A DNA stretch of 54,436 bases from Thainema sp. (GCA_052168235.1 JBQLZK010000051.1:211-54646), one strand, 5' to 3'. Counted from the stretch's first letter, positions 3,101 through 15,120 are shown. Notes: generated by a model not told the origin, from the letters alone. Translations and numbers: made by a program.

Positions 3101-6039
3101 TGATTGAGTACCGTGCTGACAATAATGCCAAAGTCGGCGTAGCCCGGTGCAGACAGGAGCGCATTGCCATACCGCAGCGACAGATTCACTTCTTCACAGG
3201 CCAGCAGAGGAAACAGATTAGGAGCCGCCTGATGCACGGACGGAACCAGATGCGCCAGCATTTGCAGTGCCGCTAAGGCTTGAGCATCGGTCATGTTTGG
3301 CAAATCCAGCAAGTCTTCAATTTTGCGATCGCCCAGGGCAGCCAACGTTTTTTCCACCTGATGCTGAATCTCTACAGGATTGACCGATTCGGGAATCCAA
3401 ATGTCAAGCTGTTGCAGCACCTCGCGACCCAGCTCAACGGCTTGGAGCTGCTGCCCCTGCACTTGATACGCCTGTAGCCGCACCTCATAGACCTTCATTT
3501 TGTCCAGCAAACCGGTAGCCTGTTGCAGCACCGTCTGAATCCAGGTTTCCATCAATTCAAACTCGCCACTTAGACGAGCCGCTTCCGCCGCCTCTGTGTA
3601 CAGCGCCAACGTCAGCTCGTAGCGGCGCTCCCAGGCATCATCTGGTAAAAGGGAAATCCCGGTCGTGAAATAGCCAATTGTGGATCGGTAAGCCGTCGCC
3701 GCTTTAGCTTTGCGGCCTGCCCTTAAATTTAAGTGAGCTAGTTCCTGCCGATCCTGCGATCGCACAATCAGATAACAGCCCACGTTTAAGTGATTGACGA
3801 TTTCAAATAGCCGCTCGTCCTGCTCATGGGCTGAAGCATTGTGTAACAAGAGCTGCCCCATTTTCAGATGGGTGGCCTGCCGCTGGTCATCGGCAATCAG
3901 AGAATACGCTGCTTGCTGGATGCGGTCGTGCAGAAACCGATAGGTGGGATTGCCTCGCTTTTCCTCTAGACCGGACTGATTCTCGCCCTGAAAAAATCGA
4001 TAGACCTGGCTATTCGGCAAAATCAAGCCGTCCTGCAAAGCTGGCCACAACGCCGCTGCCGCATCGGCTGCAGACTGCTCGGATACAATCGCCAGGGTGT
4101 TGAGGTCGAACTGATTGCCCATACATGCCGCCAGTTGCAGCACCTGCTGAGTGTTTGGTGACAGCTTCTGCAACTGCTGCGCCATAAACTCCACCACATC
4201 ATCCGTGAGCGACAGCGTTGTGACCTGCGCAATGTCGCACTGCCAATAGCGGAGATTGTGATCAAAGTGAATATGCCCATCCTCATGCAGCGCTTTGAGA
4301 AATTGGGTGGTGAAAAACGGATTGCCCTGGGTTTTGCGATCGATGAGATCAGTCAGCGGTTGCGCCAGTTCGATGGCACAGTTCAGCGTATCGGCAACCA
4401 AATGATTCGTATCTTCAAACGTCAGGGGAGCCAGGGTAATCGTACGCACGGTAACCTGCGCCTGCTTCAGATCCGCCACCGTCATCATCAGCGGGTGGGC
4501 CGACGACACCTCATTATCGCGATAGGCCCCCAACATCAGCAGATAGCCATTGTCATCCAGCAGCAGTTTCATCAACTGTAGAGAGGCTAAATCCGCCCAC
4601 TGCAAATCATCCAAAAAGATCACCAGTGGATGATCTGCGGTTGTAAACACTTCAATAAAGTTTTGCAGCAGCAAGTTAAACCGATTTTGGGCTGCACTGC
4701 CGCTCAGCTCTGGCGCACTCGGCTGAGATCCAATAATCTGCTCCAGCTCTGGAATCACATCGATCAGCACCTGACCGTTTTCACCCAGAGCAGCCAGAAT
4801 GTTGGTTTTCCAGTATTGCAACTGTTCGTCGGACTCCGATAGCAACTGCTCGATCAAATCGCGCAGGGCTTGCACAAATGCCGATAAGGGAATGCTGCGA
4901 TTGAACTGATCGTATTTGCCTTTAATAAAATAGCCCCGCTGCCGCACAATTGGCTTGTGGACTTCATTCACCACAGCGGTTTTGCCAATTCCCGAAAAGC
5001 CCGCTACCAGCATCAGCTCAGTTGCACCCTCAGCCACTCGATCAAAGGCATCCAGCAAGGTTTGCACCTCCGATTGCCGCCCATACAGCTTTTCGGGAAT
5101 CAAAAAGCGATCGCTTAAATCTCGCTGGCCCAACTCAAACGGAGCAATCTCTCCAGCTTTCTGCCACTGCGCTAGGCACTGTGCCAAATCATGCTTCAAT
5201 CCAAGGGCACTTTGATAACGATCTTCCGCATTTTTAGCCATCAGCTTGGCAACGATGGCGGCCACCGCTGCTGGCACCTCTGGATTGACCTGCTCAACAG
5301 GTCGGGGCATTTTCGCAATGTGGCAGTGGATTAGCTCTAGCGAATCCTCCGACTGAAACGGCAACGTGCCAGTTAAAAGCTGATACAGCGTGACACCAAA
5401 GGCATAGAAATCAGCCCGATAATCAATGCCGCGATTCATCCGTCCGGTTTGTTCGGGCGCTAAATAAGCCAGCGTTCCTTCCAGCGTATTGGGGCTTTGA
5501 AGTCCTTGGGTTTCCCTGGGTAATAGCGACGCGATACTAAAGTCAATTAGCTTGATTTGCTTCGACTCTGGGTGAATCAAAATATTGGCAGGCTTAATAT
5601 CTTTATGCACTACCCGATGCTGAGATAAATCATGCAGAATATCGGCCAGCTGTAGCGCGATTGTCAGAATGTCCGTCAAATCTAACTGATGCCGCTGAGT
5701 ATATTGACTTAACGAAATGCCGCCACAGTCCTCCATCACCAGCGCATAGCCACTGCCCAAGGGTTCCAAGCTGTAGGGTTGAACTACACCAGGGACAGCC
5801 AGATTGTTTGTGAACTGACCCGTCAGCGCTTGTGCGATCGCATATTGATTGCGAAACTGCATTAGCTCGCCAAAACTGGGATATTCACGCTGTAGAACCT
5901 TAATCACCACTGGGCGCTGCGGAGCAGTCTGCATGGCTCGATAGACAGCGGTTCGAGAACCCAAATACAGTGGCTCGACAATGGTGTAACCTTCAATCTG
6001 AGGAAAGACAGGGGAAGCGTGTCTAGCTGGACTGATCAT
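181..6039 (-). CDS. Multidomain Ser/Thr kinase / AAA ATPase / GAF / PAS / sensor histidine kinase (HstK-like)
   Basis: Kinase motifs HKDIKPANIL, DFS and YLAPEQTGR; Walker A GFSGIGKT; Walker B IFLDDLQW; GAF (LYLEN); PAS; H-box AHEINNP; G-box GKGTGLGL. Confidence 0.95.
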   Translation of the reverse strand: MISPARHASPVFPQIEGYTIVEPLYLGSRTAVYRAMQTAPQRPVVIKVLQREYPSFGELMQFRNQYAIAQALTGQFTNNLAVPGVVQPYSLEPLGSGYALVMEDCGGISLSQYTQRHQLDLTDILTIALQLADILHDLSQHRVVHKDIKPANILIHPESKQIKLIDFSIASLLPRETQGLQSPNTLEGTLAYLAPEQTGRMNRGIDYRADFYAFGVTLYQLLTGTLPFQSEDSLELIHCHIAKMPRPVEQVNPEVPAAVAAIVAKLMAKNAEDRYQSALGLKHDLAQCLAQWQKAGEIAPFELGQRDLSDRFLIPEKLYGRQSEVQTLLDAFDRVAEGATELMLVAGFSGIGKTAVVNEVHKPIVRQRGYFIKGKYDQFNRSIPLSAFVQALRDLIEQLLSESDEQLQYWKTNILAALGENGQVLIDVIPELEQIIGSQPSAPELSGSAAQNRFNLLLQNFIEVFTTADHPLVIFLDDLQWADLASLQLMKLLLDDNGYLLMLGAYRDNEVSSAHPLMMTVADLKQAQVTVRTITLAPLTFEDTNHLVADTLNCAIELAQPLTDLIDRKTQGNPFFTTQFLKALHEDGHIHFDHNLRYWQCDIAQVTTLSLTDDVVEFMAQQLQKLSPNTQQVLQLAACMGNQFDLNTLAIVSEQSAADAAAALWPALQDGLILPNSQVYRFFQGENQSGLEEKRGNPTYRFLHDRIQQAAYSLIADDQRQATHLKMGQLLLHNASAHEQDERLFEIVNHLNVGCYLIVRSQDRQELAHLNLRAGRKAKAATAYRSTIGYFTTGISLLPDDAWERRYELTLALYTEAAEAARLSGEFELMETWIQTVLQQATGLLDKMKVYEVRLQAYQVQGQQLQAVELGREVLQQLDIWIPESVNPVEIQHQVEKTLAALGDRKIEDLLDLPNMTDAQALAALQMLAHLVPSVHQAAPNLFPLLACEEVNLSLRYGNALLSAPGYADFGIIVSTVLNQPEIGYQFGQLALELVDRLQAKPIQSMTGFKVAAFIQWNQDPVQRAIALLQTSYLAGMETGDLVHGPISLVFQFLYTYLCGADVLDNLRAKVSVYGVDFAAVPSFVNWSKIIGQSIENLMEVREQPEQLVGEFCDEATLLPALRNSNDELALHLFFLNKLMLSYWFNRLPTALDSADQGVQYLKGGAGMFSVPVFHYYDALARLAACSADEPVQQQQLLTQAEASQQKLATWAESSPANFLHRFHLVDAERYRILGNRAEAIDSYDCAIATAKANGFGQDEALANELAARFCLDWGKEKIAQEYLTHAYYGYAQWGATAKVQELEWRYPKLLAPILQQRTSLSTTETVFSVESIAAFSTSATQSSNFSGTGHASVSKALDLATVLKVSHTLSGAIEFDQLVATLLHTVLENAGADKGALLMPREQEWFVEAVAQVDQPVQLQPEALSSSQAVPQTLINTVKHSLQSVVIVDALAHPTLPVDTYVVQQQPKSMLCTPILRQGKLIAILYLENHVAVGAFTTDRVELLNLLCTQAAISLENARLYHQINHALQDVQYKEAQSRSIFEAASHGMLITDLETGRVIDANPAYYQLHGYSYDEILQLDPLNFIPPDRHAKFQSYLQAVKSGQEFTCEAICRHRDGAIFYIEVKSVPFWYNGQLCGLTVVRDMTQNKQMEFSIQDKNRSLEQAMVDLQAAQMQMVQSEKMSALGNLVAGVAHEINNPIGFLNGSVNHAKNYVQDLLEHLDLYQQHYPNPVEAIEENANNIDLEFLNEDLPKLLGSMQVATDRIKAISNSLRTFSRADTDYKVGADLHEGLDSTLLILKYRLKANEHRSAIEIKKEYGELPSVHCFPGQLNQVFMNILANAIDMFDEMAAQFSFSELSAVPQTITIQTRILTDQNKIEICIQDNGKGMTEEVRTRIFDPSFTTKGVGKGTGLGLAIAHQIIEQKHNGALAVQSEVGQGTKFYIHLPIGID

Positions 6040-6500
6040 AAGGTCTAGATGAATAGCGGCATGTTACTGCTTTAAAATTCCCAAAAAGGTAATTAATCTC
6101 AACAGGCTTTGTACGTAAATTAATGGGATAAGCTCACATCTTATCCCAAATATCAAAGCGGTTATTTTTTCGCATCATGACCCCAAAAATAACCGCTTTG
6201 GATTTTAGTTTTACAGGGTTAGGACTTACGCAGTTGGGCGATTTTTGGAGCGCAGAGCGCCCCAAAAATCGTCTAGAACCAGCATCTTTAAGTTGAAGGG
6301 TGTAAGTTCTAAGAGAATAGAAAGGTGTAAGAGAAGTGTAAGAGAAAAGAAAAAAGATCCGCGATCAAGCCCGTTGATCTGCGGATCAGTACTATCAACT
6401 GAAGATAGTTTGAGCAGTGCTGTAGGCGAAGGTCTAATCAATAAACAATCACTAAACAGTTATTGTGAGGCCTTCGTCAATCATTACTATAGATATTAAA

Positions 6501-6590
6501 TAGACTTTATTGGAAATAAAGTTTTTGGGGTTGGAAATTGTTTTGTAGCGCGGCGAAGCCGCGCTACAAAACAATTTCCGATAAAGTCTA
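6501..6590. repeat. Palindromic MITE/REP-like element with a GCGAAGC-centred hairpin
   Basis: Outer TAGACTTTAT / ATAAAGTCTA inverted ends; inner GGAAATTGTTTTGTAGCGCGGC-GAA-GCCGCGCTACAAAACAATTTCC. Confidence 0.8.
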
Positions 6591-6628
6591 ATGTCAATAT
6601 TTCGGTAAGGTGCTTACTGACAATACTC

Positions 6629-6734
6629 CTATAGCCTTTCCTGGGCTACTGGGGTACAAGTTATTTTGGGGCAGCCGTGCGGAGCGCGGCTGCCCCAAAA
6701 TAATTCCTCCTTTATTAGCGCAAGAATCGTTATA
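6629..6734. repeat. Dispersed ~105-bp palindromic element, family B, copy 1
   Basis: Flanks CTATAGCCTTTCCT..GCTACTG..GGTACAAGTT and CCTTTA.TAGCGCAAGAA are shared with 43498-43602; central hairpin at 6661-6703. Confidence 0.85.
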
Positions 6735-6838
6735 TGCCTCAAAGCTACTACTAGATCTGCTTGCAGAACTGGGCAGGACAACGGTTTGACAGTAGTGCAG
6801 GTAGTGGATGCGAAGCCAATTGGCTTTGAGACATTGAA

Positions 6839-6874
6839 ACTGTCATTGACAGTCAATATTGTCAGGGTTAAGAT
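6839..6874 (+). promoter_or_regulatory. Sigma70 promoter with overlapping inverted repeats (putative MerR-family operator); probably a leaderless transcript
   Basis: TTGACA (6846-6851), 17-bp spacer, TAAGAT (6869-6874), then ATG 6 nt later; ACTGTCA-T-TGACAGT (6839-6853) and TGACA-N8-TGTCA (6847-6864). Confidence 0.65.
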
Positions 6875-6880
6875 GAGACC

Positions 6881-7627
6881 ATGACAACTTTGCAGCAGAT
6901 TTCTCAGGCGAATTCCGAGTGGGACTTGGAGGCATTTGTTCAGGTAGCGAATGATCTCCTGCCTCAGTACCTGCCAGCGTCGGCAGATCCCCGTAGCCGT
7001 TCGTCGGAAGCGGTGAATCCCCGTCTGGTTCGGTACTACACAACTCAGGGTGTGCTCGATCGTCCGGCTCGCCAAGGGCGGGAAGCTCGGTATACCTATC
7101 GCCATCTGCTGCAACTGTTGGTGGTGCGTCGCCTACTGGTGGAAGGCTATAGCACGACTGCGATTCAGCCGATCACGATTGAAAAAAGCGATGTCGAACT
7201 GGAAGCGCTGCTCCAGGGTGGCATACAAATTACGGTAGAAGCAGCCAATCCGGCCCTCGCGTTTTTGCAGTCGGTCAAAGCGCGTAAGGCTCCGAGTAGT
7301 CCAGCTCCGCCGAGTCCAGATTCAGCCGATCAAACATCAAATCAGTTATTTAATCAACCCACCTCGTCTCGTTCTGCACCCGCACCGAGCAAGCGCTCCT
7401 TTTCGCCGGGGTCGCCTGCCTCGGAGTCGTTTGCAGAACGAGATAGCCAACCGAATCAACCTGAGCCAGTTTCTCGCTGGCGACGAATTGAAATTTTACC
7501 GGGATTGGAAGTACAGGTGCGGGACGACTTTGTGCCGCCCAGTACGCCCAAGGAGCATGAGAATCTGCTGCAATTGATTGCTCAACGGCTCAAACCCTTA
7601 TTCCAATCGAGGAGGTCTTCTCCATGA
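6881..7627 (+). CDS. MerR-family HTH regulator with a Pro/Ser-rich linker and a C-terminal WRRIEILPGLEV domain
   Basis: PRLVRYYTTQGVLDRP..GREARYTYRHLLQL MerR-type HTH; ATGA overlap with the next gene. Confidence 0.85.
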   Translation: MTTLQQISQANSEWDLEAFVQVANDLLPQYLPASADPRSRSSEAVNPRLVRYYTTQGVLDRPARQGREARYTYRHLLQLLVVRRLLVEGYSTTAIQPITIEKSDVELEALLQGGIQITVEAANPALAFLQSVKARKAPSSPAPPSPDSADQTSNQLFNQPTSSRSAPAPSKRSFSPGSPASESFAERDSQPNQPEPVSRWRRIEILPGLEVQVRDDFVPPSTPKEHENLLQLIAQRLKPLFQSRRSSP

Positions 7628-8916
7628 GTCAGCCTACCCTTTCGATTCTGCCGATGCACGGTGCGATCGCATCTGGTCGCTCTGTGACGCTTGATATCCT
7701 GGTCACGATTGAACCCCCTGTTATTGAACGAACATCTGATCGTCCACCCCTCAATCTGGGCTTTGTGCTTGACCGATCGGGTTCTATGGTCGGCAGCAAG
7801 ATTGACTATGCTCGCAAAGCCGTGGCCTATGCTGTAGAGCAGCTTTTGCCCAGCGACCGTCTGAGCCTGACGCTGTTTGATACGCACGTTCACACTGAAA
7901 TTCCTAGTACCCTAGCTACAGATAAGCATCGACTGCTCGATACGATTCAGCGGATTCGAACCGGTAGCTCCACCGCGCTTCATGCTGGCTGGGTGAACGG
8001 CGGCATGCAGGTCAGTCAGTACCTTAATCCAGAACATCTAAACCGGGTGATTTTGCTATCCGATGGTTTAGCGAATGTGGGGGAGACAAATCCAGATGCG
8101 ATCGCAAATGACGTACATGGTTTGATGCAGCGTGGCGTCACAACGACAGCCTTGGGGATTGGCGCTGACTACGATGAAAATTTGCTAGAAGCAATGGCCC
8201 GCAGTGGCGACGGCAATTTCTTTCATATCGATTCACCAGATCAGCTACCTGACATCTTTGAAACGGAGCTTCAGGGTTTAGTCGGCACGGTTGGTCAGTC
8301 TGTTACCTTATCGCTAATGCCGCTTGCTGGCGCGACCGTACAGGATGTATTGAACGATCTGGAAAAAACGCCGGACGGAGCATTGAAGCTACCCAATTTG
8401 ACCGTTGGTAACCCTCTCAAAGTCCTGCTGCGTCTACAGATTCCGGCTTTGGCTGAAGGAGCCAGTGTCTTGCAGGTGAAACTCGAATGGCAGGCTCCTG
8501 AGGCAGCAGAACGGCAGAGTCTAGAAGGCGAACTGCACCTGATGGTAGTCAGTCCAGAACGAATGAGTGACTTCCCTGCTAATCCAGACGTACAGGGTCA
8601 AGTTGCCCTGCTGATGGCGGCGCGTGCCCGTCAAGAAGCTGTACAGCGAGCTAATACGGGGGATTACATCGGTGCGGCCTCGGTATTGCGCCAATCTGCT
8701 CAACCCCTTTGTGCCGTTCCGGCTAGCGCCGATGGTGCGGCCAATTTTGCGGATGAAGCTGCCGCTCTCAATGAGTTAGCTGCCGACTTTGAAACAGGCC
8801 AGAGTATGCTGGCCAGTAAGCGAGCGCGATCGCAGGCGTATCACATGATGCGCAGCCGCAAGTCCAGCCACGGCCAAAAGCAACCGCCCAGTGGGTCTTC
8901 TGAGACGTCTCAGTAG
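7624..8916 (+). CDS. von Willebrand factor A (vWA) domain protein, YfbK/CLCA-like
   Basis: MIDAS DRSGSM, ILLSDGLAN, GIGADYDENLL. Confidence 0.9.
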   Translation: MSQPTLSILPMHGAIASGRSVTLDILVTIEPPVIERTSDRPPLNLGFVLDRSGSMVGSKIDYARKAVAYAVEQLLPSDRLSLTLFDTHVHTEIPSTLATDKHRLLDTIQRIRTGSSTALHAGWVNGGMQVSQYLNPEHLNRVILLSDGLANVGETNPDAIANDVHGLMQRGVTTTALGIGADYDENLLEAMARSGDGNFFHIDSPDQLPDIFETELQGLVGTVGQSVTLSLMPLAGATVQDVLNDLEKTPDGALKLPNLTVGNPLKVLLRLQIPALAEGASVLQVKLEWQAPEAAERQSLEGELHLMVVSPERMSDFPANPDVQGQVALLMAARARQEAVQRANTGDYIGAASVLRQSAQPLCAVPASADGAANFADEAAALNELAADFETGQSMLASKRARSQAYHMMRSRKSSHGQKQPPSGSSETSQ

Positions 8917-10702: not shown

Positions 10703-10807
10703 CTTAGAATTGTGGATTAAATAGCCTGTAAACCGTTTCATCCGTAGGGACACGGCAACGCTGTGTCCTTGCCCAAAAATTTCACCTGATTAAATCCACG
10801 TTCCTTA
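10703..10807. repeat. ~105-bp element with a GTAG-type REP core (family D); inverted copy at 54283-54388
   Basis: Near-identical to the reverse complement of 54283-54388; core GTAGGGACACGGC..GCTGTGTCCTTGC. Confidence 0.85.
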
Positions 10808-10908
10808 TATGAAGTCCGGTTGAAAACCCAGAATTTATTTTTTGTGAAAGGCTTGCTCCGCAAGCCTTTCACAAAAAATAAGTTGGGTTCTTATACGCGG
10901 ACTTGATA
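10806..10908. repeat. ~100-bp palindromic element, family C, copy 1
   Basis: AAGTCCG...CGGACTT ends; central TTATTTTTTGTGAAAGGCTTGC-TCC-GCAAGCCTTTCACAAAAAATAA; homologous to 15018-15120 and 52105-52203. Confidence 0.9.
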
Positions 10909-10992
10909 TTAGATAAAGATTTTTGTCAGATCGGCCAGCTTGAGCAAACTCTCGCTTTAGGCTAAACACGAAAGAGTAGCCCATAGCATGCG

Positions 10993-11721
10993 TTGATGAC
11001 GATGACCCCAGAACAAGCCACAGAAATTCTGCGTCTACGAGATGCCAAAGCAACCCCTAAGCAAATTGCTCGCAAACTGGGGCTGAGGCCCGCAGAGGTG
11101 AAAACCTTCATTCAGCAACATGCGGAGGACGTGTATCTCCAAAAAGCTCAGGATGGAACCTTGGAGCCAGTTTACGAATGCTTGGTTAACCAAAGTGCAG
11201 CTCAGCGGCTTTTGGAAGGTGTAGATCTGGATGAGGAAGAAGGAGTCGGTGGTTTTTGCCAGTTGATTTTAGCTCGGCAAGAAAGCAACCGAATTATCTC
11301 GGCTGTATACCTAGTTGACTATTGGTGTTTGGGGGTGAAAGATGTCATCCCTGCCCAAAAAACGGGTAAGAGTGGATATGAACGGTTCAAACGGCTCTGC
11401 ACAGAACGGTTTGAGGAACCGTTTATCGACATTTCTCTCGAATAAGCCCAATCGATTGTTTATGGTGCGGTTGACTATGCTCGCAGCTTAGGGCTTGAAC
11501 CCGCTCGCGATTTTGATAAAAAGGCTCAAATGCATTTGGGGCCAAGACCTGAGCCGTTAATTCCCATAGAGTTTGGTAAAGATGGGAAACCGTTTTACTT
11601 CAGCGGGCCTTATGATAATGCCGAAAAAATCATCAAGACTTTAGAGACAAATGTCGGCATTGAAAACTTTGACTACATAGTGCCAATCGGTGACAGTGGC
11701 GATCTGGACTTCTTGGAGTGA
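10993..11721 (+). pseudogene. HTH-containing hypothetical protein interrupted by an in-frame TAA at 11443-11445
   Basis: ORFs 10993-11445 and 11530-11721 are in the same frame; reading continues as E*AQSIVYGAVDYARSLGLEP. Confidence 0.8.
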
Positions 11722-11751
11722 TGAGGCCTTCAACGCTGAAAAGGCTTTAGG

Positions 11752-11846
11752 AAAAGTGCGATCGCAGTTTTATACATACACTTTTGGGCTGGAAGTGCGA
11801 TCGCAGTTTTATGCATATACGACGGGTTTGAAAAAGTGCGATCGCG
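11752..11846. repeat. ~40-bp imperfect tandem repeat built on AAGTGCGATCGC
   Basis: HIP1 at 11758, 11797 and 11838; AAGTGCGATCGCAGTTTTAT repeated. Confidence 0.8.
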
Positions 11847-11929
11847 CTTTGTACCCTAATGCCATCAGTTATCAAGAGGTTGAGATTGTGGCATGGTGGT
11901 AGGTGTTGGATAAATCTGGTATAGAGGAT

Positions 11930-12133
11930 GTTATCCAGCATTAATCATCACATCTGATGGATAACACCCTGAAAACGGGGAGTTAGACAGCAAACTTTCT
12001 GTTTAATTCCTGAAAAAGTAGGTGTTATCCCGCAAACCTGACGTACAACTACGGTTATCCCGCAGATGTGACGTATAACTACGGAATGTGGGGGTGTTAT
12101 CCATCAGATCTGACGTTGAATATATAGTTGTAC
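11930..12133 (+). other. Putative integron attI-like site with direct repeats
   Basis: GTTATCC..CA(G/A)A..TGACGT motif at 12024, 12054 and 12096 plus an inverted copy around 11946-11969; ends in AT-rich GAATATATA then G/TTGTAC crossover core. Confidence 0.55.
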
Positions 12134-12207
12134 CGCTTGAGATGGAGGTTCCTGTTTGCTGGTTTTCTCCATCCTCTACCACTTCTACCCAAATTGTGAT
12201 ATTTTTT

Positions 12208-12331
12208 GGATTGTTGAAGGGGAGTAGCTTGGGCTATATCAGCCCGTTATCTGAATCAACATACTGGCGATGAGCCTGGTTCAGGTAGCAAATTAGCTTT
12301 CTAATTTGTCAGCGAGACCTTCACTGAGTCC
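12208..12331 (+). ncRNA. yybP-ykoY manganese riboswitch
   Basis: AAGGGGAGTAGC ... ATCAACATACTGG ... CCTGG ... GCGAGACCTT conserved blocks; P1 GTTGAAGG/CCTTCAC; lies upstream of a TMEM165/GDT1 gene. Confidence 0.85.
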
Positions 12332-12362
12332 ACGGAGAGAGTGGGCTTGGTGGGGTCTTTTT
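12315..12362 (+). terminator. Intrinsic terminator forming the riboswitch expression platform
   Basis: AGACCTTCACTGAGTCCAC pairs with GTGGGCTTGGTGGGGTCT followed by a T-run; overlaps the 3' strand of the aptamer, consistent with an ON switch. Confidence 0.7.
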
Positions 12363-12408
12363 AGATATCCGTCATGCCTGCTCAATCCACTATGAGCTGG
12401 AGTAGTGC

Positions 12409-13032
12409 ATGAACTTTCTGACAGGATTTACATCCGGGTTGTTACTGATTACGCTGTCGGAACTCGGCGACAAAACCTTTTTTATTGGCGCTATTTTAGC
12501 CATGCGCCATCCCCGGCGGTGGGTATTTCTGGGTGTAACAACGGCGTTAGCGGCCATGACCTTATTGTCGGTCTGGATTGGTCAACTGGCATCATTTTTT
12601 CCCAAACACTATGTTCAAGGCATTGCCGTAGCTCTGTTTATTGGCTTCGGGTTAAAACTGCTTTATGATGCCAGCCGCATGTCTGGCAAAGAGACTCTAG
12701 ATGGGGAACAGGCCGAAGCCCTGGAAGCGGTTGAGCAGCGAGAGCAGGGCATCGCCACTTGGTCGGCCAGAGCCGTGGTAATGGAAGCCTTTACCCTCAC
12801 TTTTATTGCCGAGTGGGGCGATCGCACCCAAATTGCCACCATTACCCTGGCCTCTTCTCACCATCTCTATGGCGTGCTGTTGGGAGCCATCCTGGGCCAT
12901 GCTATCTGTGCCGCCATTGCAGTATCCTGCGGCAAACTCATCGCTGGGCGCATTTCCGAGCGCCTGATGACAGCCCTGGGTGGTGCCTTGTTTATCGGTT
13001 TTGGCATCCTTGCTGCCATAGAAAGCGCTTAA
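12409..13032 (+). CDS. TMEM165/GDT1 (UPF0016) Mn2+/Ca2+ exporter
   Basis: Two ExGD(K/R)T motifs, SELGDKTF and AEWGDRTQ; multiple TM helices. Confidence 0.93.
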   Translation: MNFLTGFTSGLLLITLSELGDKTFFIGAILAMRHPRRWVFLGVTTALAAMTLLSVWIGQLASFFPKHYVQGIAVALFIGFGLKLLYDASRMSGKETLDGEQAEALEAVEQREQGIATWSARAVVMEAFTLTFIAEWGDRTQIATITLASSHHLYGVLLGAILGHAICAAIAVSCGKLIAGRISERLMTALGGALFIGFGILAAIESA

Positions 13033-13091
13033 TTATCACCTGTTATTGCTTGAGACGTTTGATTCAACCTTAGATCCAATTCACTAAAACG

Positions 13092-13811
13092 ATGATCAAG
13101 AAGATTTCCCCCTCCCGTCCCTATCAACCGTTCCTCCTACGGGTTTTGCATGGCCTGACGGGACTGTTCCTGATTGCCGCCATTTTGACGGCCTACTGGA
13201 CTTACGACACCTACGATGGGCGCTGGGGACGCATTCCCCTGCCCGCTTATCAGAACATTGAGGGGATCCACGGAACTTTTGGTTTATGGACTTTGTTGGT
13301 ATTCCCGGCCTTTGTGATCTATGCCTTTCACCGGGGACAGAAACGGCTGATGCAGTCTGATTCTCTGAGCAAGCTGACTCAGGTAGGCAAACCCATCTGG
13401 TGGTACACCTTGAATCGTGTGACCAACACCCTGGCCCTGCTGGCCTTAACCTTTGCCCTATTCAGCGGCAAGATGATGGACGAGACCTGGTTGCCCGAAG
13501 GAGAGTTAAATCATGGTTGGTACTACGCTCACCTGATTTCGTGGGTGGTGATGGTAGGTGCGATCGCGCTGCACCTGCTGATGAATGCGAAGGTTGGCGG
13601 ATCTCCATTGCTGCTGTCAATGTTGATCTGGCAGTTTCGTGACAAAGATAGCCCCACCCTCTGGCCAGCTCATGTCTCCCAGTGGTGGTCACAGGTTCAG
13701 CAAGAAGCTTGGACAAATTGGTTCCAACCAATGACGGCGATGATCGCCCTGGAAATTCTAATTCTGGTGAGTATCGTGGCTGGCTGGATTATTCCGCTGT
13801 TTAAGTACTAG
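13092..13811 (+). CDS. Cytochrome b/b6-like (b561 / Ni-hydrogenase cyt b family) membrane protein
   Basis: TM helices with conserved His (LRVLHG, GIHGTFG, YYAHL, IALHL). Confidence 0.75.
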   Translation: MIKKISPSRPYQPFLLRVLHGLTGLFLIAAILTAYWTYDTYDGRWGRIPLPAYQNIEGIHGTFGLWTLLVFPAFVIYAFHRGQKRLMQSDSLSKLTQVGKPIWWYTLNRVTNTLALLALTFALFSGKMMDETWLPEGELNHGWYYAHLISWVVMVGAIALHLLMNAKVGGSPLLLSMLIWQFRDKDSPTLWPAHVSQWWSQVQQEAWTNWFQPMTAMIALEILILVSIVAGWIIPLFKY

Positions 13812-13899
13812 CTTCAAGCGTCAAGGGAAAATTGGCAAAGACCGTTCATCATCGCTGCTTTCCCCTTGAATTGCTAGTGAAGCATCTTTACTTACAGCG

Positions 13900-13985
13900 G
13901 TACAACACTTCGTTGGTGCGGACGGCACAAAGGTTATCGGTGGATGTTCGAGGTTATCTGCCGCAGTACAACTTCACCGTTAGCC
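13900..13985 (+). other. Integron attC site (86 bp)
   Basis: R'' GTACAAC, 5 nt, L'' GTTGGTGC (extra G) ... CGGCA/TGCCG stem ... L' GTACAAC, 6 nt, R' GTTAGCC. Confidence 0.75.
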
Positions 13986-13987
13986 CG

Positions 13988-14052
13988 ATCGCACTTTTAC
14001 CTTATCTAGGAATCGCACTTTTACCTTATCCATACACTGCACTTACCTTATC
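13988..14052. repeat. ~24-bp tandem repeat ATCGCACTTTTACCTTATC (2 full copies plus 1 partial)
   Basis: Units at 13988, 14012 and about 14039. Confidence 0.8.
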
Positions 14053-14177
14053 TATCGGCTTACAGCACCCCAACTTTTGCCTAATCACGCAATGTACCTT
14101 TTCGGTTAACCGAATCTTTAGGTAGGGTTTTACCGCTTTACCTGATTTTGCGCTGAGTATAGGATTTGTTTAGTGAA

Positions 14178-14191
14178 CGAACGATCGTTCG
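14178..14191. promoter_or_regulatory. Putative TetR operator CGAACG-AT-CGTTCG (autoregulatory)
   Basis: Perfect palindrome just upstream of the likely tetR start; same GAACG-NN-CGTTC core at 15196-15207. Confidence 0.6.
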
Positions 14192-14195
14192 CAAT

Positions 14196-14882
14196 GTGCA
14201 ACTCAAGCAGTTGAGTGTTCCCGTGTCCGATATCTCCTCAGCGTCATCTAAAAAACGCGATCGCAGTCGAGCTGCCATTTTGGCAGCAGCGCTTGATTTG
14301 TTTACCGAGCGGGGTTACGACGGCACTTCGATTGATGACATTCGGAAAGCCGTTGGATTCCGCTCCAAGTCAAGCCTGTATGCTCACTTTGCCAGTAAAG
14401 AAGCGATCGCAGAAGCCTTGCAGACCCACATTTTTGAGCAGATGAATCTCATACTGCTGCAATCGGGTGCAACTGCCGGAGCTGATCCCCTAGATCGGTT
14501 AACGGCCAGTCTGCGGGCTGCGATTCGCTGGGCCTTGACCCATCCCAAAGAGCACACGTTTCGCTTTATTCGCAATCAGCAAGAACGCTTGCTCAGTGGG
14601 CGATTCGACTACATGCGTGATCCCAAGTCCGACATCTATGTCCATATGTTTAAGCTGATGGCTGAACTGCGCCAGCACTATCCCGTACGTGCGATCGCAG
14701 ATCAAGCATTAGTGAGTTTAGTCGCGGGTGTCGTCAGTCGGTCGGTGATTGACCAGGAAGCCTTTGGTGCAATTCCGCTGGAAGAGACAGTAGAGCAGGT
14801 GCTCACCGTTTGTCTTGCGATTGTGTTGGAGTCCGAAAACCTGCATTCCATTGAGCTATCCGAGGCATCGTCTGAGGCGTAA
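14196..14882 (+). CDS. TetR/AcrR-family transcriptional regulator
   Basis: ILAAALDLFTERGYDGTSIDDIRKAVGFRSKSSLYAHFASKE HTH; start uncertain (GTG at 14196 or 14223). Confidence 0.9.
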   Translation: MQLKQLSVPVSDISSASSKKRDRSRAAILAAALDLFTERGYDGTSIDDIRKAVGFRSKSSLYAHFASKEAIAEALQTHIFEQMNLILLQSGATAGADPLDRLTASLRAAIRWALTHPKEHTFRFIRNQQERLLSGRFDYMRDPKSDIYVHMFKLMAELRQHYPVRAIADQALVSLVAGVVSRSVIDQEAFGAIPLEETVEQVLTVCLAIVLESENLHSIELSEASSEA

Positions 14883-15017
14883 AGAGATTGCTGTTTTTTG
14901 TTTCCGTTAGCACGAGTACTCTCGAACGAGTTTGCGTCGTTTGATATATTTTGTGGTCAGAGCAAAAAAGAAGGTATAAATGATATTGGATTAAAGCTGG
15001 ATTTGAGCTGTTACTTG

Positions 15018-15120
15018 TATCAAGTCCGTGTATCAGAACCCCATTTTATTTTTTGTGAAAGGCTGGCTAAGCCAGCCTTTCACAAAAAATAAATAATTGT
15101 TTTTTAGCCGGACTTCCTTA
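15018..15120. repeat. ~100-bp palindromic element, family C, copy 2
   Basis: TATCAAGTCCG...CCGGACTT; TTTGTGAAAGGCTGGC-TAA-GCCAGCCTTTCACAAA. Confidence 0.9.

Follow-up and report, generated by a model that had tools for sequence, protein, structure and literature searches.

A likely cyanobacterial integron remnant whose single cassette carries a manganese exporter gene behind a predicted riboswitch

How does a manganese exporter gene come to lie between the two ends of what looks like an integron gene cassette, in a genome in which no intact integron integrase gene is found? This question is raised by a stretch of 54,436 nt from Thainema sp. (GCA_052168235.1, JBQLZK010000051.1:211-54646), hereafter the window, which belongs to contig C51 of the host assembly (G000; 7.54 Mb, 205 contigs, completeness 99.99%). 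An earlier note on this DNA had read 11930-13985 as an integron locus without integrase, holding a mobile and self-regulated manganese-detoxification cassette. According to the analysis described here, window 11865-13985 is very probably what remains of a cyanobacterial-type chromosomal integron, namely an intI scar, an attI site and one cassette closed by an attC site. The mechanism is that of an ordinary integron, and the novelty is the self-regulated cargo. Relatives of the host were covered by a DNA search (40 genomes) and by a search with an intI profile (41 genomes); G001 is the genome of the same genus. Loci are given L-numbers, and L009 lies in G008, L067 in G408, and L002, L006 and L007 in the host genome itself (contigs C59, C1 and C41).

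Integron cassettes are usually single promoterless genes, the expression of which is tied to the platform promoter and to the position in the array. Integrons of Cyanobacteria, clusters of attC sites lacking an integrase (CALIN) and occasional intI pseudogenes are described in the IntegronFinder study (Cury et al., 2016, PMC4889954), and cyanobacterial attC sites are conserved enough for a phylum-specific covariance model (Ghaly et al., 2021, PMC8352920).

Ends of the cassette and its copies elsewhere

The cassette occupies 1852 bp on the plus strand (12128-13979), from the TT of the left crossover to the G of the R' box of attC, and these limits are those of the similarity to its copies elsewhere. 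Its left-end core, GTTGTACCGCT at 12127-12137 (C51:12337-12347), is the exact reverse complement, in 11 of 11 bases, of AGCGGTACAAC at 13896-13906 (C51:14106-14116), which is the cassette's own R'' region. The 11-mer alone is weak evidence, because GTTGTACCGCT occurs eight times on both strands of the 7.54-Mb genome against about 3.6 occurrences expected by chance. As judged from the alignments, the weight of the 11-mer is its position, since the attI family ends there and similarity to foreign cassette copies begins there. The pair, which had been noticed earlier, thus marks the true left end. R'' is also complementary to the start of its own cassette elsewhere: 10 of 11 bases pair in the cassette adjacent to the copy in L009, and 8 of 9 in those on C59 and C41.

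Similarity between the window and the copies in other genomes starts at 12125-12127 and ends at 13979-13985. L009 matches 12127-13985 at 94% identity. Upstream of it is a different cassette, whose attC ends ...CCCGAAACG|TTGTACC, and downstream the sequence departs from the window after ..CACCG|TTAGCC. L067, again at 94% identity, has the upstream cassette in common with L009 and is followed by a different sequence (|TTGGGCTGC). A scan of genome contigs with the cytochrome-like protein encoded in the cassette gave 80 loci. The junctions of L089 and L090 are those already seen in L067 and L009, and these two loci were not counted again. In L091, the unit is present at 93% identity behind ...ATAATCACTAG|, with an attC truncated after L''; this locus belongs to a contig of 326 kb that is assigned to a Sphingobacterium metagenome bin, a label that may reflect mis-binning. 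In L142 and L144, the unit, at 86-90% identity, has a different attC site on either side (56.7 and 63.7 bits). Among metagenomes, the match in record 9 of X2 starts at 12127 behind yet another attC-like end, and runs of three further studies contain most of the cassette at about 90-97% identity. Run X1 is 100% identical inside and outside the cassette, across both junctions; it may be the source sample, so that it is not independent. In run X6, position 12129 is joined to 13904, which was considered as an excision product and rejected: the record consists of the attI end, other sequence and then attC, and the content of the gap is marked as not known.

Altogether, at least five left contexts (the attI of the window, the attC type in L009 and L067, another attC in L142 and L144, ...ATAATCACTAG| in L091, and another attC in X2) and at least four right contexts (TTAGCCCGATCGC, TTAGCCTTCTGG, TTGGGCTGCTTC and TTAGCCAGTAAT) are found, and across all of them similarity breaks at G|TT. 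On these comparisons the cassette moves horizontally as a unit, since other cyanobacteria have nearly identical copies of it in other arrays. Its transfer appears to be recent, because the identity of 94% between genera or families contrasts with that of the flanks, which are 81-86% identical in G001 of the same genus and have no match or one of 74% in G008. The earlier claim that the locus is the footprint of an integrated cassette is supported by the same unit with identical G|TT boundaries in other arrays, by sibling attC sites, and by integrases that stand beside the same attC and attI families in relatives (see below). An integron integrase would have inserted 12128-13979 by attI x attC recombination at G|TT, as far as the junctions can tell. 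No empty-site allele is readable in G001, where only the GCS2 gene (86%) and another piece of the flanks (81%) have counterparts, each of them on a different contig; the downstream flank has nothing in common with G001 except a repeat, and there is no synteny at the locus. No copy of the cassette was found in the plasmid collection, which gave distant homologues of the genes and attC-like sites instead.

The attC site, the attI site and the lost integrase gene

The attC site (13900-13985, plus strand) is defined by covariance models and by its four boxes. R'' GTACAAC (13900-13906) is separated by a 5-nt spacer, ACTTC, from L'' GTTGGTGC (13912-13919), and L' GTACAAC (13966-13972) by a 6-nt spacer, TTCACC, from R' GTTAGCC (13979-13985). 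The crossover lies between G13979 and T13980, so that 13980-13985 is part of the downstream segment. With respect to the consensus RYYYAAC / GTTRRRY, R'' and R' deviate at one base each, and AAC and GTT are invariant or nearly so in 26 aligned sites of the family. The earlier note called this site a textbook attC. Its boxes are indeed where they had been placed and its family is canonical, but this copy differs from those of the L009 and L067 cassettes by two L' substitutions (..CCGCACAAC to ..CAGTACAAC) and keeps 17 of 21 model pairs. It was also right that R'' does not match its own R', as three of the seven R-box pairs are non-canonical in the model alignment.

By BLAST, two sibling attC sites are found in the host genome, on C4 (89% identity) and C1 (84%), with the canonical R'' boxes GCCTAAC and ACCTAAC and the R' boxes GTTAGTC and GTTAGCT, respectively. 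The DNA search of the 40 relatives found dozens of copies with 80-90% identity in many families. Conservation extends from ..TAAC of R'' to GTTAG of R', and the four outer bases are variable (23 copies and three divergent sites). The structure was tested on the 26-site alignment as R''/R' and L''/L' pairings with two unpaired bases on the L'' side. In this alignment, 87.4% of the cells pair and 12 of 21 pairs show a compensatory change, which was matched by none of 500 shuffles, and pairing falls to 29-50% in slid registers. In the L-stem alone, 94% of the cells pair, nine of 14 pairs have a compensatory change, and alignment positions 18 and 24 are unpaired. A covariance model of all 26 sites (R1) gives the window's attC 89.7 bits. 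A second model (R2), which leaves out this site and its L009 orthologue, still finds 13900-13985 at 83.7 bits (E 1.5e-21) as the sole match in the 54-kb window at E<=1; a check with an attC covariance model had been proposed before, and with this leave-out model built here it came out positive. In the host genome, R1 detects 16 attC sites at E<=1, 11 of them outside the training set (one of these is identical to the C41 site), and all 16 have xxTAAC...GTTRxx ends and diverse stems. In G040:C66, G009:C842, G005:C1 and G030:C7, a site of this family is no more than 10 kb away from a full intI, which is on the other strand. At relaxed thresholds, no Rfam family covers attC or attI. The loop of this attC class (alignment columns 33-62) is almost as conserved as the stem across cyanobacterial families, and it holds two direct GGTTATC heptads, which resemble the GTTATCC repeats of attI and might be additional contacts of the integrase. 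Unannotated sites with 82-90% identity to the window's attC are also present on plasmids of Kovacikia minuta CCNUW1 and of Synechocystis sp. PCC 7338, PCC 7339 and PCC 6714.

The block to the left of the cassette, 11895-12127 on the plus strand, contains direct 30-nt units of the GTTATCC type at 12024-12053, 12054-12083 and 12096-12125 and an inverted pair at 11925-11940 and 11955-11970. It ends ...CAGATCTGACGTTGAATATATAG, and the crossover follows G12127. Siblings of the block are found in the host genome on C59, with partial copies on C110 and C66, and further ones in relatives. Its terminal motif CAGATCTGACGTTGAATATATAG is present in 15 of 18 related loci examined, and in 12 of these 15 copies conservation stops at ...AG|TT, after which unrelated sequence of the TTRRRY type (TTAGCY, TTATGC, TTGTRC etc.) follows; one of the remaining three breaks with a one-base shift, and two do not break there. 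In G020:C164, G004:C39, G009:C696 and G012:C14, a block of this family lies 100-200 bp from intI or intI fragments and divergent to them. By placement and behaviour, 11895-12127 is therefore taken as an attI site, and the GTTATCC-type repeats are probably binding sites of the integrase, by analogy with attI1. Positions 12024-12083 are a 30-bp tandem duplication of the GTTATCC...GACGTAYAAC unit, which is single in sibling attI sites (C59, G001:C46 and others).

On the minus strand left of attI, at 11865-11894, the sequence ATG CCA CAA TCT CAA CCT CTT GAT AAC TGA encodes the nine-codon frame MPQSQPLDN*. Full-length IntI proteins of seven relatives start M..(Q)P(R)P(K)(K)LLDQVRD and all end ...RGVRSPLDx*. 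The short frame thus would fuse the opening codons of intI to the four at its end and the stop codon. Its ATG has the distance and the context (CAT GG.GGTAG.TG.TGGATAA) that are seen before the full intI genes of G020:C164 and G004:C39, and in G001:C25 a longer intI remnant is found in the same context. On C41, the second platform of the host, 62 N-terminal positions of IntI (TIGR02249 69.6 bits; PF13495) are fused to ..RGVRSPLDN*, and the 3' flank of this remnant is that at window 11836-11879, which matches C41:2011-2053 at 86%; in the window, 11836-11864 (minus strand) would be the 3' flank downstream of the former stop codon. As the scar joins N-terminal and C-terminal codons, we infer that intI at this locus was lost by an internal deletion of almost the whole gene. 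No intact intI exceeds the TIGR02249 cut-off in the host genome, where 16 candidates were scored and the best, positions 1-62 on C41, reaches 69.6 bits against 265. By the same cut-off, intI is present in 23 of 41 related genomes. The label of an integrase-less locus thus holds for the window and for the genome, but the scar and attI indicate that an integrase was deleted here; likewise, the genome search that had been suggested turned up sibling attC sites and no intI above the cut-off. Decay of platforms is documented in this way at no fewer than two host loci, where an internal intI deletion leaves an orphan attI.

In the order attI-cassette-attC, the G|TT junctions, the R''/L''/L'/R' architecture of its attC family with the extra L'' base and the loss of intI, the locus is like chromosomal integrons and CALIN as they are presented in PMC4889954 and PMC8352920. 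In contrast to CALIN as defined in the former, it retains attI next to the nine-codon scar. By the rules given there, the 2016 IntegronFinder pipeline would discard it as a single attC without integrase (PMC4889954).

Several points weigh against this account of the locus. First, the minimum-energy fold of the window's attC is non-canonical on both strands (z -0.10 and +1.28). Its canonical hairpin has +2.0 kcal/mol, compared with -8.2, -10.4 and -13.1 in the siblings; sibling sites adopt the canonical bulged hairpin when folded as single-stranded DNA (z -2.8 to -3.8). Second, the attC models were built in this analysis and are dominated by one conserved attC class, and the nine-codon scar is too short for a statistical test. 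Third, L009 and L067 share their upstream cassette and count as one left context, L142 and L144 are identical over the stretch, and several copy-bearing records are metagenome bins, so that mis-binning may inflate the taxonomic spread. Neither an excised circle nor an empty site was observed. Finally, no integrase is encoded in the genome, so that present mobility in the host is doubtful.

The cassette is probably stranded in its present host, because no IntI is encoded there and the attC stem is damaged. It is unlikely, although conceivable, that the cassette still moves by means of an IntI gene missing from the assembly or of an IntI supplied in trans by incoming DNA. The assembly is in 205 contigs, with several attC and attI sites at contig ends, it has been proposed that CALIN cassettes are usable by incoming integrons, and integron integrases tolerate divergent attC sites (PMC4889954). 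However, in a genome that is 99.99% complete the sole TIGR02249 match is the 62-position N-terminal fragment, G001 of the same genus likewise has only an intI fragment, and the window's attC has lost stem pairs. Thus, the mobile module of the earlier note is seen in the copies elsewhere, whereas in this host, with a mutated attC and no IntI, it has probably ceased to move.

The regulated cargo and its origin

All parts of the cargo that had been named before, the riboswitch with its terminator, the exporter and the cytochrome-b-like protein, are found in their places. The leader at 12207-12365 (plus strand, terminator included) is a highly likely candidate for a working Mn riboswitch of the yybP-ykoY class, although this assignment stands a little behind that of the integron. 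The Rfam family of the Mn riboswitch, RF00080, matches 12207-12383 with 31.1 bits (E 4.3e-6), and this is the sole match of any Rfam family at relaxed thresholds in 11600-14300. The score is below the gathering score of 45, at which no Rfam family matches anywhere in the window, and the shortfall counts against the assignment. RF00080 also scores 28-37 bits in six of 11 homologous loci scanned, which makes the sub-threshold score a trait of the cyanobacterial variant and not of the window's copy. The aptamer cores GGGGAGUAG, CAACAUAC and GAGACCUUCA, which we take to be the motifs that define the yybP-ykoY class, are invariant in seven homologous leaders. In the alignment of these leaders, five of 44 predicted pairs have a compensatory change, and one helix varies in length. 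A terminator-like hairpin of 15 pairs followed by a T run (12319-12355) is the sole strong site of this kind upstream of the genes. It overlaps the 3' strand of helix P1.1: its 5' arm holds CCUUCA, which pairs with UGAAGG at 12217-12222. The Rfam check suggested for this leader thus gave a match below the gathering score, and the support for the assignment comes from the core motifs, the five covarying pairs and the competing terminator. In the yybP-ykoY class, bound Mn2+ stabilises the aptamer, and the terminator is not formed. By this class mechanism, Mn2+ binding would stabilise P1.1 and block the overlapping terminator, so that the exporter would be transcribed, as an ON switch.

Upstream of the leader, a conserved -10-like element suggests that the cassette contains its own promoter. 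The element, TAnnnT, lies about 12 nt upstream of the aptamer and is kept in five of the seven aligned leaders; the candidate -10 region, ATTGTGATATTTT with a TG extension (12193-12205, plus strand), is kept in L009, L069 and L091. Against such a promoter, a simple sigma-70 scan finds no two-hexamer promoter at the leader. If the promoter is real, expression of the cassette should be independent of the integron Pc promoter and of the position in the array.

The first gene (12409-13032, plus strand) encodes a cation exporter of the GDT1/UPF0016 (TMEM165-type) family with 207 aa. PF01169 matches it in two stretches with 156 bits (cut-off 27, E 3.1e-46), and its repeats carry ELGDKT and EWGDRT, presumably two instances of E-x-G-D-[KR]-[TS], the signature of the family. 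The protein is 97% identical to the L009 copy and 62% to the one encoded on C5 of the host. The second gene (13092-13811, plus strand) encodes a membrane protein of 239 aa that resembles cytochrome b561 and DUF4405 proteins and is 94% identical to the L009 copy; PF01292 matches with 41.5 bits (cut-off 30.1) and PF14358 with 23 bits, below its cut-off. Histidines, as candidate haem ligands, are present. An NCBIfam search gave no family match for this protein, and its plasmid-borne homologues are named 'cytochrome b/b6 domain-containing protein' in RefSeq. It is predicted that this protein would be co-transcribed with the exporter. The host has two further UPF0016 loci, at C5:101222-102106 and C3:45481-46132, and the cassette would act as an extra Mn-inducible exporter beside these resident genes. 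The C5 gene is full-length, is preceded by DNA 74% similar to the cassette leader and is followed by an RNase III gene; in that leader RF00080 does not reach E 0.01. The C3 locus is a pair of half-size genes.

Exporters of the UPF0016/GDT1 family controlled by yybP-ykoY elements include Mnx/SynPAM71 of Synechocystis and MneA of Vibrio. The window is like these systems in the RF00080-type leader before a GDT1-family gene and in the terminator that competes with P1.1. It is unlike them in the packaging as an integron cassette, in the cytochrome b561-like partner and in being a second or third GDT1 locus of its genome. Among cassettes, own promoters and multi-gene contents (cmlA, toxin-antitoxin and fused cassettes) are reviewed in PMC8876359. 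The window's cassette would share Pc-independent expression and the presence of more than one gene with the examples treated there, but differ from them in control, which is predicted to be by a riboswitch with a terminator, compared with translation attenuation in cmlA and protein autoregulation in toxin-antitoxin cassettes. For class 1 integrons an 'aminoglycoside riboswitch' was proposed, but this element is now regarded as the leader of attI1, and the claim that it is a riboswitch was rejected (PMC9410878; Roth and Breaker, 2013, as cited in PMC8876359). The element of the window, in contrast, very probably belongs to an established class, RF00080, and lies inside the cassette. Another report, in which attC-like motifs came from RNA-motif searches, concerns a different case (PMC5737381). 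In the literature searched, which was mostly open-access and in main texts, no validated riboswitch class inside an integron cassette was found and the aminoglycoside element is the sole claim; within that scope this would be the first established class in a cassette, the one earlier 'integron riboswitch' having been refuted. A cassette with a whole sensor-effector circuit, that is, probable promoter, riboswitch, exporter and accessory gene, implies that integrons can move self-regulated homeostasis modules beyond bare coding sequences, and this one occurs in several lineages of Cyanobacteria as well as in metagenomes from the environment.

Where did a cassette of this kind come from? The arrangement of leader, GDT1 gene and cytochrome-like gene also occurs outside cassettes, in L010, L012, L016, L092 and L118, with a DNA identity of 73-78%. 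There, no attC was detected: nothing above 10 bits in L010, L012 and L016 in a model search with filters off, and none at E<=0.01 in L092 and L118 in a search with default filters. Similarity of these operons to the cassette extends from about 12189 to 13816-13839. The cassette consists of a candidate -10 region, riboswitch leader, two genes and 3' untranslated region; added to these are 61 nt at the 5' end, which are unrelated, and an attC that is fused on some 85 nt beyond the stop codon. Going by this similarity, the cargo stems from an operon which other cyanobacteria carry outside any cassette.

It has also to be considered that two single-gene cassettes, one with riboswitch and GDT1 gene and one with the cytochrome-like gene, were fused after loss of an internal attC, without capture of an intact operon. 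Fused cassettes are a known phenomenon (PMC8876359), loci with the GDT1 gene only (L069, 92.6% aa identity; L071, 86.7%) and with the cytochrome-like gene only (L011, 93.7%; L070, 88.7%, with a decayed attC; L013, 86.6%) do exist, and just 17 of the 80 loci encoding a relative of the cytochrome-like protein have a GDT1 match within 2.5 kb. Nevertheless, a fusion is quite improbable. The adjacent riboswitch, GDT1 gene and cytochrome-like gene are present without attC in the five operons above, and the 59-nt spacer between the two genes has no attC remnant by the model with filters off. Moreover, the closest single-gene loci, L069 and L011, retain the shared intergenic spacer up to the breakpoint, so that they look like secondary losses from the two-gene form. 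In contrast to the fused cassettes of PMC8876359, the gene pair would then be an ancestral operon.

The non-cassette ancestor operon is still extant, which makes it useful for studies of cassette genesis. A further step is to regard the cassette lineage and the non-cassette operons as a natural before-and-after pair for the birth of a cassette, and to suppose that integrons can also spread ligand-sensing RNA regulators together with their effectors as plug-and-play units. This proposal is speculative and is offered with low confidence. If true, the pair would speak for capture, at the level of DNA, of an operon with its promoter and against the proposed route by reverse transcription of mRNA, and wider sampling could reveal a closer donor.

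Repeats and other integron-like sites

The host genome is rich in short repeats, with 17958 occurrences of the highly iterated palindrome HIP1 and dozens of copies of a 105-nt palindromic repeat. The 86-nt attC element is itself unusually conserved (80-90% across families, loop included), and the termini TGTAC...GTACA with multiple sub-terminal repeats suggested transposon ends. It is nevertheless barely credible that this element and the upstream repeat block are dispersed repeats, be they like miniature inverted-repeat transposable elements (MITE) or repetitive extragenic palindromes, or Tn7-like ends, which flank a resident Mn operon without any integron recombination: the repeats are outside and not inside the 11-bp inverted pair, the left block adjoins intI in four genomes, the R''/L''/L'/R' architecture shows covariation and the extra L'' base, conservation of each copy runs from ..TAAC to GTTAG, the elements form same-strand arrays 0.8-1.9 kb apart, junction comparisons break at G|TT, and neither target-site duplications nor a transposase co-occurring in intI-free genomes was seen. 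Ends of a Tn7-like or CRISPR-associated transposon were also tried as a candidate and rejected, as the repeats outside the inverted pair are attI beside intI in relatives.

Other repeats are found in the surroundings of the integron remnant. The MITE-like palindromic repeat of about 105 nt is present at 10799-10912 and at about 15012-15117; in G001 it has dozens of copies on both strands with 78-92% identity, and a repeat of this type gave a spurious mir-1253 Rfam match in L021. Short direct repeats containing HIP1 flank the remnant in inverted orientation, at 11754-11861 and 13988-14054. To the left, AAGTGCGATCGCAGTTTTATRCATAYAC occurs three times at intervals of 39-41 nt; to the right, ATCGCACTTTTACCTTATC.. 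occurs twice, in copies of 24 nt, and the core TTACCTTATC recurs a third time. The attC on C4 likewise precedes CGATCGCACTTTT.

Other integron-like sites were seen in the host genome. L007 (on C41; locus positions 1957-2681) is the second decayed platform. It has another type of attI, in which three GCCTAAT...GTTAGGC units lead up to the end ..CTCTAATAAATAG|TT; behind this attI come a short cassette without a gene and an attC, to which a site at C80:24056-24141 is identical. On C4, a cassette with Rieske and TetR genes and an attC is present. A third attI-like end, ..CACTCTAATTAATAG|, is located at C56:51047-51256 and is joined to sequence that opens with the first 12 bases of the Mn cassette, TTGTACCGCTTA.., and then diverges; the contig stops about 160 nt beyond this joint. 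L002 (on C59; locus positions 6207-8448) has an orphan attI of the window's type, then a short gene-less cassette with a strong hairpin, then attC. Beyond this attC are an open reading frame of 180 aa without a Pfam match and a convergent gene for a C-5 cytosine methyltransferase, which together may be a restriction-modification cassette. Toxin-antitoxin-type cassettes are typical of chromosomal integrons, and in L006 (on C1; locus positions 5687-6930) a PIN-domain gene lies between the attC sites C1:273178 and C1:274147 and is followed by a MazF/PemK-like gene.

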